This document shows, one piece after another, positions 2,555-5,426 of a DNA stretch of 16,197 nucleotides. Origin of the DNA: a virus; the UHGV virus genome UHGV-1963518. One strand, given 5' to 3'. Within the stretch, counting starts at the first letter, position 1. The number at the start of each line of letters is the position of its first letter. The position numbers and the translations under genes were made by a program. The notes beneath the pieces are model-generated. The model did not search any database. It saw nothing but the letters and a program-made list of their open reading frames with translations, and was not told where the DNA came from.

Positions 2555-2752
2555 ATGTCAAATACGCTTATTCGTTTAACAGAAGTTCAGCGTAGAACTG
2601 GATATAGCAAGGCATGGATTTATCGCCTTATGGGGCAAGGTAAATTTCCTGCATCAGTTAAAATTGGCTCGCGAGCTATTGCTTTCGTTGAGAGTGAAAT
2701 TGACGAGTGGATTAATCAGCGTATTGCGGAATCACGCGGAACAGCTACCTGA
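2555..2752 (+). CDS. alpA: AlpA-family transcriptional regulator / excisionase-like DNA-binding protein
   Basis: 65 aa with RBS GAGG upstream. Sequence LTEVQRRTGYSKAWIYRLMGQGKFPASVKIGSRAIAFVESEIDEWI is typical of the AlpA family. Its position after int matches CP4-57-like and Gram-negative PICI layouts. Confidence 0.85.
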   Translation: MSNTLIRLTEVQRRTGYSKAWIYRLMGQGKFPASVKIGSRAIAFVESEIDEWINQRIAESRGTAT

Positions 2753-2829: not shown

Positions 2830-3630
2830 ATGAAATTTCCAAAAACGCCCGTACAGGGGCGGGGCTTCGTTCGGCCTGAAAACCAGAATCTGCAAAATTT
2901 CGGCGAAATTATCCCGATTATTTCCGGCGTTATTGGCGGGAGTGAAACCACTATTGTTAGCGCCAGAGCGTTACATAAGGCGTTAGGTGTAGGGCGCGTT
3001 TTCCGTTCGTGGATCAAGGGGCGCATTGAAGAATACGGGTTCACGGAAGGCGTGGATTATGAGGTTGTTGAATATTTGAGCCGACCCGATCCGGTGAGCG
3101 CAAAATCTCGCCAGCAAACCGCTCTTGAGTACATCATCACAGTGAACATGGCGAAAGAACTGGCGATGGTCGAACGTACCGAACAGGGCCGCGCCGTTCG
3201 CCAGTACTTTATCAAATGCGAGGAGGAGCTACACAAGGTTGCGCCTGTTCGTTCCGCAGCGTTACGCCGGGAACTGAAAGCCCGTATCACAGTTGCCAGC
3301 TACTTTAAGCCAATGTGTGCCGCGCTGGAGGCGTACCGGGCTGAACTGGGTAAAAACACACTCCAGCACCACTACACCACGGAAGCGAACATGCTGGCGC
3401 GTATCGTGCTGGGTGGCATGACTGCAAAACAGTGGGCACTGGCGAACGGCATTACAGGCGAACCACGCGACCACATGAGCACGTTGCAGCTTGAGCACCT
3501 TTCTTACCTTGAGCAGAGCAATATCACGCTGATTGAGTTAGGCCAGGACTACCACCAGCGGAAGGCTGAATTAATTCGTCTTTCGCAGCGTTGGTTAGCC
3601 CGTCGCATGGAGGAAAACAGCCATGTGTAA
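2830..3630 (+). CDS. Phage antirepressor-like protein (AntA/KilAC-type domain)
   Basis: 266 aa with RBS AGGAG. Segment VSARALHKALGVGRVFRSWIKGRIEEYGFTEGVDYEVV matches the AntA-type pattern as I remember it. Family assignment is from memory only. Confidence 0.55.
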   Translation: MKFPKTPVQGRGFVRPENQNLQNFGEIIPIISGVIGGSETTIVSARALHKALGVGRVFRSWIKGRIEEYGFTEGVDYEVVEYLSRPDPVSAKSRQQTALEYIITVNMAKELAMVERTEQGRAVRQYFIKCEEELHKVAPVRSAALRRELKARITVASYFKPMCAALEAYRAELGKNTLQHHYTTEANMLARIVLGGMTAKQWALANGITGEPRDHMSTLQLEHLSYLEQSNITLIELGQDYHQRKAELIRLSQRWLARRMEENSHV

Positions 3631-4347
3631 CGCTCTGACCGTTACAAAAAGAGAAAGCGCCCCGTTGCCGGAGCGCCTTTGTGAACGAATAGCCTACTGC
3701 GCCATATTGCTTACTGTCTACGAGGCAGATTATAGCGTTGTGGTCGCACAGAGTGAAGGCGCTGATCACCGTTACTACAGCACGCCAGAAATGCAGAATA
3801 TTTTGCTGCAAAATGTCGTTGGTCACACTGTCCGGAAAGCAAAAAATTTTGCTGGTGGCGCGACTGATGCGATTTTGTCAGGTCGCCAGGTGCTGATCAA
3901 TCTGATGTCTGATTTCGTTCTGGATAAAACAAAGGCGACCGCAGAGGGCCGCCAGTGGGAAAGCTACATACTTGAACGCATCGCCAACAATGCCAGATTT
4001 GCGGCTGGTGGGCAATGTGTCAGCTTTGCACCAATGACTCTATGTTTAACTGAGGGTCATTATGGTGAATATGCTGGCTTGCTGGTGGGCTATTCCTGCT
4101 CTTTAACATTGCCATGCCGCGATGTTTTCCAGGTATGCGACCCCATTTTTGTGCGCCTGTACTCTTTAAGGAATTTCTCAAGGATAAACGCACAGGGCGC
4201 GAATCTGTTTGACTCATGCTCGTACGCTATCTTTCTGCGCTGTCTTTTCCGTGCCGGTGATGGTGTATTGGTTGATTCTTTGTTGGTCATGGCGCTGCCC
4301 TGTAAAACGATGCACCGTAGTTCCTCACACCACGGCGCTGGTGATGG

Positions 4348-4653
4348 TTACTCCAGTTCTTTGGCCTTGCGCCGCTGGAGTTCTTCACGCGCGACGGTGA
4401 CGAGTTGCCCGATCTCCTCGGCTGCTTTGACACCGATTTTTTCCACCTGCGCCAGTGCATCGAGCGAAGAAACCAGGGGATTTTCTCCGCTTCCTTCTGC
4501 CTGGCGGCGGGCGATTTCACCGCGAACGGCTGTAATCACGAAAGCGGCTATTGTTTCCCCTTCCGTTTTCGAATTTTCCATTTCCTCGATTACATCATGG
4601 GGGAAGCGGATATTTTTCATTTGCGATCTGCTGTTGATGTTTCCTGTTGCCAT
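4348..4653 (-). CDS. Putative ribbon-helix-helix (CopG/Arc-like) DNA-binding regulator, divergent from the early operon
   Basis: Minus-strand ORF. Internal Met (start at 4620) gives MKNIRFPHDVIEEMEN...ETIAAFVITAVRGEIARRQ, a beta-strand/helix/turn/helix pattern typical of RHH proteins. The opposite-strand frame here is Ser/Ala-rich nonsense. True start (4653 or 4620) is uncertain. Confidence 0.5.
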   Translation of the reverse strand: MATGNINSRSQMKNIRFPHDVIEEMENSKTEGETIAAFVITAVRGEIARRQAEGSGENPLVSSLDALAQVEKIGVKAAEEIGQLVTVAREELQRRKAKELE

Positions 4654-4743
4654 CAGAATGTCCGGTTATTTTGAGGTGTGTACACATTACACCAAAAGGT
4701 GTGTTGATAAAACACTTGACACTGTAGCACACTTAAATCTAAT

Positions 4744-4778
4744 CTGTATATACACCAATGATTGTGGTGTATATACAG
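4744..4778. promoter_or_regulatory. Perfect 14-bp inverted repeat CTGTATATACACCA-N7-TGGTGTATATACAG in the divergent intergenic region (putative operator)
   Basis: Read directly; the arms are exact reverse complements. Lies between the minus-strand RHH gene and the plus-strand operon starting at 4844. A TTGACA hexamer sits nearby at about 4718-4723. Confidence 0.55.
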
Positions 4779-4843
4779 CAACGCCCCGCAGTGGTGGCAC
4801 ACATGCAGGGCGTCTAACCAAACCGTTAAACGAGGTAACGATT

Positions 4844-5209
4844 ATGGCTGGAACACAGCATACCCAAACTCACCCTAAATTTATATACACCTTCCTGGCG
4901 GTGCACCGTGATTGCATAGCTGACGGTAAAAACACTGTACACGTAGCCGCTGATACGCTGGTTGATGCCTGCGAGATGCTCAATGACATGGGCTATATCT
5001 CGGCAACATGGAAAGGGCGCGAAGAAAACACGCTGTTTATTCAGAAATGCGAGAACAATTTTATCTGGCGTTTTATCGCCCTGAGCACAGCACAACCGCG
5101 CGTAATTCACATCGAGGCCACCAGCGAACAGGAAGCACGCCAGCAATCTCCTGATGGCTGCGTGATGGTATTCGCTGCCCGTATTCGCCAGGAGGTGGAG
5201 CATGTGTAA
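4844..5209 (+). CDS. Hypothetical protein, first gene of the early operon
   Basis: ATG at 4844 preceded by GAGG. In frame with the C-terminal third of the 528-aa ORF 3623-5209. Stop overlaps the next start (ATGTGTAA). Confidence 0.5.
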   Translation: MAGTQHTQTHPKFIYTFLAVHRDCIADGKNTVHVAADTLVDACEMLNDMGYISATWKGREENTLFIQKCENNFIWRFIALSTAQPRVIHIEATSEQEARQQSPDGCVMVFAARIRQEVEHV

Positions 5210-5426
5210 TGCAACATGGCCTGATGCAGCGGTAGACGCGATCAAAACGCTGATGGATTCACTTATTGAGATTTCTGCTATCGCTGGTGTGGCGCATAAA
5301 CACGCAGCCAGAGAATCAGAATGCATCTTCCATTATTTAGCATTTGTGCAGCTAAAAGCCGATCAGGCACTGGATAAGGCCGGAAAAATTATCATGGCTG
5401 ATGTGCAGGAGGTGCACCATGCATAA
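5202..5426 (+). CDS. Hypothetical small protein
   Basis: 74 aa. Strong RBS AGGAGGTGGAG immediately upstream. Overlaps both neighbours by a few nt. Confidence 0.5.
   Translation: MCNATWPDAAVDAIKTLMDSLIEISAIAGVAHKHAARESECIFHYLAFVQLKADQALDKAGKIIMADVQEVHHA

Follow-up and report, generated by a model that had tools for sequence, protein, structure and literature searches.

A phased array of candidate operator sites beside a YlcI/YnfO-family ribbon-helix-helix gene in a P4-like satellite

The stretch of DNA analysed here is the 16,197-nucleotide UHGV virus genome UHGV-1963518, referred to below as the window. It contains an integrase gene adjoining a tRNA, an alpA gene, a Bro-type zone and a primase gene, and no capsid or tail genes are present in this stretch. 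By these genes it is a Gram-negative phage-inducible chromosomal island (PICI) or P4-like satellite, and its organisation is that described for such satellites (PMC10111431, PMC6092414). The gene order is integrase, int-alpA RNA, alpA, antA, two leftward genes, and a rightward early operon. The leftward genes encode a small protein, hyp66, and a 101-residue protein of the YlcI/YnfO family with a predicted ribbon-helix-helix (RHH) fold. The rightward operon consists of an Icd-like gene, small open reading frames (ORFs), a DUF4222 gene and a D5/DUF5906 primase gene (domains D5_N, DUF5906 and Pox_D5), with ProQ and PerC encoded further on. The region of interest, positions 4654-4843, is the exact gap between the start codon of the minus-strand RHH gene (4653) and the plus-strand ATG of the Icd-like gene (4844). 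It contains a series of repeated sites that are probably operators for the adjacent RHH protein. The coordinates of the individual features are collected in Table 1.

Inverted repeat and phased sites upstream of the early operon

The most conspicuous element of the control region is an inverted repeat with the arms CTGTATATACACCA (4744-4757) and TGGTGTATATACAG (4765-4778), which are 14 nt each, 100% complementary according to the repeat finder, and separated by the 7-nt loop ATGATTG. With loops of up to 20 nt allowed, all other perfect inverted repeats in the window are shorter. Dinucleotide-preserving shuffling gave arms of at most 11 bp, both in 200 shuffles of the whole window and in 2,000 of the intergenic region (190 nt). 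Each arm also holds its own self-complementary 10-mer, TGTATATACA, so that the pair doubles as a direct repeat with a spacing of 23 bp.

The two arms are members of a larger array. Five sites of about 10 bp, starting at 4677, 4700, 4723, 4745 and 4768, follow one another with a phasing of 22-23 bp and can be described by the consensus TGTRYRYACA. The window has four occurrences of this consensus, where 0.36 would be expected, and none of 200 shuffles reaches four; three of the four matches fall in the control region, inside a span of 101 nt. An earlier note on this DNA had pointed out a divergent control region with an exact inverted repeat, and another short palindrome and a TTGACA hexamer nearby. 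These observations are correct: the gap separates the 101-aa ORF (4348-4653, minus strand) from the 121-aa ORF (4844-5209, plus strand), the reading of the sequence and the repeat finder agree on a repeat that lies beyond all shuffles, and GTGTACAC and TTGACA are present at 4678-4685 and 4716-4721. The note's view of the palindrome as the control element needs revision. The palindrome does belong to a set of repeated sites, but the unit is five phased sites and not one palindrome.

The sites are arranged around two putative divergent promoters, the positions of which we infer from conservation between related loci. S3 and S4 bracket the rightward -10 element, and S1 and S2 bracket the leftward one. 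The palindrome would lie at about +1 to +27 of the rightward promoter, with S5 at about +13 to +27. Sites S3-S5 would cover the -35/-10/+1 region, an overlap with the core promoter that is typical of repression.

Several other candidate elements were considered. A scan flagged an intrinsic terminator on the minus strand at 4778-4744; it was rejected, as only 5 of its 14 pairs are G-C, its tail ATTAGATTTA contains no U-run, and no minus-strand gene ends upstream of it. A copy of TTTATATACACC at 4880-4891, inside the Icd-like ORF, was considered as a sixth operator and is probably due to chance, because the same segment is unchanged in elements of another class (class D, see below) with a different operator motif. 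Searches of Rfam at the gathering score (whole window) and at E<=10 (4500-5300) gave only noise, such as an R1162-like antisense RNA at 17.9 bits (cutoff 55). The fourth match to TGTRYRYACA in the window, TGTGTGCACA at 12210-12219, lies in AT-rich DNA upstream of a 532-aa ORF (12339-13937) and may be a remote site or a chance occurrence.

The RHH protein, its specificity classes and the nested reading frame

The 101-aa protein matches NCBIfam NF041551, a 42-residue N-terminal domain model, with 64.2 bits (cutoff 30) over residues 9-50, and is 38% identical to YlcI of Escherichia coli K-12. Its only Pfam RHH match is below threshold. The sequence shows the RHH succession of a strand, a helix, a G-x-T turn and a second helix. 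An AlphaFold2 monomer model built with 29 homologues (predicted local distance difference test score, pLDDT, 82.7) consists of an extended segment (residues 11-18), two helices (19-28 and 35-55) and a long helix (59-100). The best structural matches of the model are RHH antitoxins, namely TacA, Rv0298, MazE4/6 and CopA(SO). The family match, the fold model and the structural matches together bear out the proposal in the earlier note that this gene encodes an RHH protein. The predicted DNA-reading β-strand is the N-terminal segment QMKNIRF. The C-terminal part could be an oligomerisation or an inducer-binding segment. Its residues 45-101 (4351-4520) are near-invariant, and a PDB profile gives a weak match of residues 45-86, with the motif LxxVExIGxKxAxEI, to the helix-hairpin-helix of Hef (E 0.013); AlphaFold2 predicts one continuous helix where this helix-hairpin-helix was suggested.

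The control region was compared with 80 IMG/VR loci, one Enterobacter soli locus and 10 further loci fetched by exact protein. A single-protein scan of genome contigs gave one locus, and the diversity was supplied by IMG/VR and the exact-protein look-ups. The same layout is present at all compared loci. The 101-aa protein family has a variable N-terminus and a nearly invariant C-terminus, and the control regions share a scaffold consisting of TTGACx, a spacer of 17-18 nt, TAAnnT, a T-tract and, on the opposite strand, TATACT. Within this scaffold are four to five slots, at about 22, 45, 67, 89 and 111 nt from the repressor ATG, that are filled by a motif which is repeated within an element and differs between classes. 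At least six classes can be distinguished, each combining a particular strand with a particular site motif: QMKNIRF with TGTATATACA (class A, the window), QLTTVRV with TGTGTTTCA (class B), QSLTARI with GTGTAAGAC (class C), KQISIRI with TGTGATTCA (class D), QQLNARF with TGGTATTCAC (class E) and QMTTIRV with TGTATATCAC (class F). The sites, their phasing and the co-variation of strand and site are seen directly in the sequences, and the fold of the protein is a prediction.

The correspondence between strand and motif also held as a forecast in other genera. In Klebsiella a QSLTARI strand is accompanied by four copies of GTGTAAGAC, in Cronobacter a KQISIRI strand by five copies of TGTGATTCA, and in Citrobacter koseri a QLTTVRV strand by TGTGTTTCA, in each case at the same positions. 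Three diverged proteins with the strand QMKN(I/V)RF, from Salmonella, E. coli and a Logan contig, have TGTRYRYACA-like sites at these positions as well.

The boundaries of the variable segment are sharp. Between classes, antA, hyp66, the repressor C-terminus, the leader, icd and orf74 are 81-100% shared. Class D elements are 97% identical to the window in antA, 92% in hyp66, 95% in the repressor C-terminus, 100% in the 5' part of icd and 99% in orf74, and have no detectable similarity to it in the repressor N-terminus or the control region, so that this part is swapped as a cassette. In classes B, C, D and F the helices are near-identical and the differences are essentially limited to the strand and the operators; their DNA is 90-100% identical beginning at about codon 26, and low identity is confined to the part upstream. 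On the other side, segment 4640-4775 goes with the repressor gene in E. coli (55 genomes) and the segment from about 4777 goes with the Icd-like genes (about 700 genomes), placing the junction at the right edge of the palindrome, 4778/4779. The cassette thus ends at the DNA-reading element on one side and at the last site on the other, as a repressor-operator pair predicts. The conserved C-terminal coding part of the repressor gene is found in 654 of 5,426 complete E. coli genomes.

The control region is also traversed by a long plus-strand reading frame. The stop-free span 3599-5209 comprises 536 codons, and its ATG at 3623 overlaps the antA stop codon (3628-3630). The frame runs antisense through hyp66 and the whole RHH gene, then through the AT-rich control region. 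The in-phase frame is free of stops in 33 of 40 distinct control regions with unrelated cassettes, while the other two frames contain on average 6.3 and 4.5 stops and are open in none of the 40. This openness is partly inherited with the shared scaffold; the class-specific slots avoid stops too. The third codon positions of the long frame and the RHH gene coincide, and the peptide encoded opposite the RHH gene is rich in Ser, Ala and Cys and unrelated between classes. Translatability of the frame thus appears to be conserved and the peptide sequence not. At other loci the preceding gene is of the alpA or Bro-N type, and the frame starts at or just past its stop codon; one of these loci (L093) shows an ATGA overlap. 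At the sequence level, this is the nested eta/kil arrangement of P4, and by analogy it suggests an eta/kil-like read-through route that could bypass the repressor. Annotation pipelines mark one of the two, the RHH gene or the long ORF antisense to it, and in no case both.

The early transcript would begin with a leader in which the stem-loop at 4781-4813 is followed by the invariant TCTAACCA (4813-4820). About 700 E. coli genomes share this leader, as do phage mEp460, a Klebsiella phage of 106 kb, a PICI that forms capsids and the Pasteurella satellite Pmp7. No Rfam family matched 4781-4843, and a search for an antisense partner of the leader motif GTCTAACCAAAC gave only chance-level matches elsewhere in the window. 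A hairpin analogous to that around the Shine-Dalgarno sequence (Table 1) is present in other leader variants. The N-terminus of the Icd-like protein, MAGTQHTQTHPKFIYTFLAVHR (4844-4910), resembles the start of P4 Kil (L096, about 8300-8370, minus strand) in a direct pairwise comparison. A tblastn search of phage records with the Icd-like and RHH proteins gave one match each and did not reveal this likeness. In PHROGs, the families of the Icd-like protein bear the label 'transcriptional repressor', which most likely goes back to an obsolete annotation that called the P4 eta/kil ORF 'cI gene product'.

Table 1. Features of the control region and its surroundings in the window. Promoter elements are putative.
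Feature	Position	Strand	Context	Basis
alpA	2555-2752	+		Pfam Phage_AlpA, 2.4e-19
antA	2830-3630	+		Pfam AntA, 2.5e-23
Long open frame, eta-like	3623-5209	+	In phase with the Icd-like ATG	528 codons from first ATG
hyp66, 66-aa basic hypothetical protein	4090-4290	-	Downstream of the RHH gene	phrog_21027, E 8e-32
Candidate repressor, 101 aa, YlcI/YnfO family	4348-4653	-		N-terminal RHH domain (about residues 9-45) and conserved long C-terminal helix
Site S1, TGTGTACACA	4677-4686		Contains GTGTACAC; at the putative leftward transcript start	TGTRYRYACA match; first variable slot
Leftward (repressor) -10, TAATGT	4684-4689	-		Aligns with the TGTGTATACT / TATACT element conserved in other classes
Site S2, TGTGTTGATA, degenerate	4700-4709		Upstream of leftward -10	Second variable slot, 23 bp from S1
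Rightward early promoter -35, TTGACA	4716-4721	+		TTGACx / TTGAAA / TTGCAA at this position in all classes
Site S3, TGTAGCACAC, degenerate	4723-4732		Between -35 and -10	Third variable slot; perfect motif copy in other classes
Rightward -10, TAATCT	4740-4745	+	18-nt spacer	TAAnnT in all classes; close relatives TAATTT
Site S4, left arm	4744-4757		Overlaps end of -10 and putative +1	Core TGTATATACA, 4745-4754
Site S5, right arm	4765-4778		Last element of the class-specific cassette	Core TGTATATACA, 4768-4777
Leader stem-loop of early transcript	4781-4813	+		11 pairs, 4 with compensatory changes (12 sequences)
Small hairpin CGTTA/TAACG	4824-4840	+	Shine-Dalgarno GAGG (4832-4835) in loop	Minimum-free-energy fold
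First early gene, 121 aa, Icd-like / P4 Kil-like	4844-5209	+		NCBIfam NF033153, E 6e-23

Proposed mode of control and alternative explanations

The palindrome is probably composed of the sites S4 and S5 of an array of five operators that is bound by the adjacent RHH protein and covers both promoters. The role of the RHH protein as the likely repressor, put forward in the earlier note, is well supported by comparison of the loci, since the site motif tracks the DNA-reading strand. From these comparisons we infer binding, repression and oligomerisation, which may proceed as follows. RHH dimers would bind to the five sites and read the DNA with the N-terminal strand QMKNIRF, while the long C-terminal helix would join dimers on neighbouring sites, two helical turns apart. 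Occupancy of S3-S5 would occlude the rightward promoter and silence the Icd/Kil-like gene and the replication operon behind it. As S1 and S2 bracket the leftward -10 element, their occupancy would make the protein control its own synthesis as well. A route to induction can be envisaged more speculatively, by analogy with P4 eta/kil. Infection by a helper would lead to AlpA-driven transcription through antA into 3623-5209; translation of the long frame might then shield the transcript from termination, and convergent transcription over the repressor gene and its operators might turn the early genes on. The repressor may thus set the quiescent state, which AlpA-driven read-through may override. 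The description of the control region as the master switch of the element, also given in the note, goes beyond what the comparison shows; the demonstrated master regulator of Gram-negative PICIs is the activator AlpA (PMC6092414), which is encoded here too.

A number of observations weigh against this assignment. Since the published work gives control of Gram-negative PICIs to AlpA (PMC6092414), the repressor module may be secondary. A consensus promoter scan of 4300-5300 gave no promoter, so that the promoter assignment rests on the conserved scaffold; the rightward -10 TAATCT agrees with the consensus at three of six positions, and the leftward promoter has no recognisable -35. Sites S2 and S3 are degenerate in the window. 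The strand and the operators are adjacent on the DNA, and their co-variation could partly reflect linkage within one recombining block. Finally, the perfect symmetry of the arms is not kept among class-A relatives with the same protein N-terminus: of seven distinct versions only that of the window pairs at 14 of 14 positions, and a single compensatory change (T-A to C-G) is found against five non-compensatory kinds, two of which give C-A mismatches. Judged from these sequences, the 'perfect palindrome' is best understood as a pair of sites that are well preserved and inverted relative to each other.

The last observation also bears on the unlikely alternative that the palindrome acts as RNA, in the form of a 5'-terminal hairpin that stabilises the mRNA or modulates translation, with the symmetry of the DNA as a by-product. 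The early transcript would then start within or ahead of the left arm. A transcript starting near 4752 forms a 5' hairpin of 6 bp ahead of the conserved stem-loop and of the hairpin with the Shine-Dalgarno sequence, several other classes have a short unrelated hairpin just after site 4, and the compensatory T-A to C-G variant fits such a role. However, the other five of the six kinds of class-A change are non-compensatory, and the leader fold is not significantly more stable than that of shuffled sequences (z = -1.6), which leaves the RNA hairpin as a minor rival. Moreover, the arm sequence recurs unpaired at S1-S3 with a phasing of 22-23 bp, a pattern of protein sites and not of a hairpin. 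It is very improbable that the region has no regulatory role at all and represents coding sequence of the long ORF, or a product of chance or recombination. It does lie within the 536-codon stop-free span, and one gene caller annotates such a span as protein. Yet its translation is rich in Ser, Ala and Cys, does not resemble a folded protein and is wholly different between classes, the repeat is far beyond chance, and phased class-specific slots in a conserved promoter scaffold need an explanation at the DNA level.

Two further explanations accept the sites as operators and differ in the protein or the target. The main ligand might be a YlcI/YnfO protein of a helper phage or a resident prophage, AlpA, or the Icd-like product. 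Lambdoid prophages do encode proteins with the same N-terminal domain, YlcI of K-12 being one of them, and the PHROG label of the Icd-like protein would also fit. Such a ligand is nevertheless quite improbable, because only the strand of the adjacent RHH protein tracks the motif. Both alpA and antA are common to classes with different operators; the Icd-like/leader module recombines independently of the operator class and therefore cannot carry operator specificity, and its PHROG label is most likely the inherited P4 annotation mentioned above. There is a similarly small chance that the RHH gene and hyp66 form a toxin-antitoxin-like pair, with sites that serve autoregulation of the pair and not control of the early operon. 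This would agree with the RHH antitoxins as best structural matches, with the small gene that follows the RHH gene in the same orientation, and with the conserved C-terminal helix, which could bind a partner. On the other hand, hyp66 is basic and of low complexity and matches no toxin family or any other entry in Pfam, NCBIfam or PADLOC. Moreover, most of the array (three sites of five) is located on the rightward promoter and not on the leftward one. Between the two genes lies a terminator-like hairpin (4312-4338, minus strand; 10 pairs, 6 of them G-C), owing to which the RHH gene and hyp66 may not be fully co-expressed.

Beyond the preferred assignment of the sites to the adjacent RHH protein, a wider proposal can be made with considerable reserve. 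The protein repressor still missing for many Gram-negative PICI/P4-like satellites might be this RHH family with its matched five-site arrays; its genes would run antisense within a nested gene of the eta/kil type, in place of CI-RNA immunity. The family would then comprise at least eight exchangeable cassettes, sometimes consisting of the β-strand and about 125 bp only, would perhaps be overridden by AlpA-driven, translation-protected read-through, and would be present in about 12% of complete E. coli genomes and reach Pasteurella. Literature searches returned no description of a YlcI-type RHH repressor in satellites; in the founding paper on Gram-negative PICIs the global repressor was unclear and AlpA was shown as an activator. 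The locus offers a concrete and widespread candidate repressor with clear specificity classes. If confirmed, this candidate would show how co-resident satellites avoid cross-talk, would provide a compact set of orthogonal repressor-operator pairs, and would show RNA-based (P4) and protein-based immunity to be interchangeable within one nested-gene framework. The locus also exposes an annotation problem, given that the two overlapping ORFs are never annotated together.

Comparison with known systems and further observations

The locus is a variation on RHH repressor-operator systems and P4-type immunity regions. In the immI region of phage P22, the RHH repressors Mnt and Arc act at the divergent promoters Pmnt and Pant. 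As in immI, a small putative RHH repressor is here encoded divergently from the operon that it would control, and its sites overlap the core promoter; the protein shares with Mnt the succession of an N-terminal RHH domain and a C-terminal helical segment, which in Mnt serves oligomerisation, and its specificity is predicted to reside in the β-strand. Unlike immI, the present locus has five phased sites over two promoters instead of one or two operators, a repressor of the YlcI/YnfO family, a target that starts with an Icd/Kil-like gene and replication genes instead of an antirepressor, and a repressor gene that runs antisense within a long open frame. Antitoxins and plasmid regulators of the RHH type such as TacA, CopG, omega and ParD, which include the best structural matches, likewise autoregulate through repeated sites. 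In contrast to these, no recognisable toxin partner was found here and the sites extend over a second, divergent promoter.

The immunity regions of lambdoid phages (lambda, 434, P22 and 21) are comparable in that several operators with a common core flank divergent promoters, and in that repressor specificity and operators are exchanged as a cassette between near-identical genomes. The present protein differs in having an RHH instead of a helix-turn-helix fold, without sign of a RecA-cleavable linker, and in four classes the swap involves no more than about 22 codons together with about 125 bp. With the master repressors Stl/Rpr from pathogenicity islands in Staphylococcus aureus (SaPIs) and from other Gram-positive PICIs (PMC6092414) the locus shares a divergent repressor between the integration and replication modules, and the presumed task of silencing the island as long as no helper phage is present. 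Stl, however, is an unrelated helix-turn-helix protein derepressed by helper-phage proteins, whereas the fold predicted here is RHH.

The closest framework is that of satellite P4. A published account (PMC10111431, citing Forti et al. 1999) describes that eta of P4 is coupled to the alpA homologue vis, that the constitutive early promoter PLE is internal to eta, and that Kil is a truncated eta product; full-length translation of eta from the upstream late promoter prevents termination. The locus resembles P4 in its long ORF starting at the end of an alpA- or Bro-type gene, with an internal early promoter and, at its end, a Kil/Icd-like cell-division inhibitor, and in the order integrase, alpA, the zone described here, primase. 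It is unlike P4 in that the immunity factor of P4 is an RNA (CI RNA, seqA), in the place of which an antisense-encoded protein and its putative operators are found. P1 and P4 have an immunity RNA of the C4/CI type; such an RNA was looked for here ahead of the Icd-like gene and not found: the Rfam families C4 and isrK both match P4 in the same search, and neither is present in the window at the gathering score or in 4500-5300 at E<=10. The locus therefore has the appearance of the nested-gene framework of P4 in which a cassette for a protein repressor takes the position of the RNA immunity.

In the E. coli chromosome the island adjoins tRNA-Thr, on the side of proA, and is 97-99% identical in many strains, with 99% in O104:H4 and 55989-like strains; EcCIMP1 occupies the same chromosomal site, proA-thrW (PMC11773190). 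The 3' part of a tRNA at positions 1-50 is probably the attachment site, and an int-alpA RNA motif (Rfam RF02996, 45.5 bits) is located at 1479-1546, just past the integrase gene. The namesake of the YlcI/YnfO family, ylcI of K-12 (prophage DLP12; L097, 4252-4446, minus strand), is also transcribed divergently, here from nohD, the gene for the small subunit of terminase, with the cos region between the two. Family members in lambdoid prophages may therefore regulate packaging genes.

The same arrangement is present in the 10.7-kb Pasteurella satellite Pmp7 (L098). There, an unannotated RHH ORF beginning with MATGNKNNKSLKKGIRFPHELI (4778-5032, plus strand) lies antisense within a coding sequence labelled 'transcriptional repressor' (4435-5109, minus strand). 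Repeated sites of the ACGCACAC type surround a TTGACG hexamer, and the same TCTAACCA leader is present; the Pmp7 RHH protein has no long C-terminal helix. Elsewhere in the window, three copies of AAAGTGTCAA(CCT) at 11487-11553 include a perfect inverted repeat with arms of 13 bp (11512-11524 / 11541-11553), which is surpassed in length only by the palindrome of the control region and may be another operator or an origin element. Finally, an 11-bp perfect inverted repeat, GGTGAACAGTT ... AACTGTTCACC, is found at 8414-8453, about 150 nt downstream of the primase gene.
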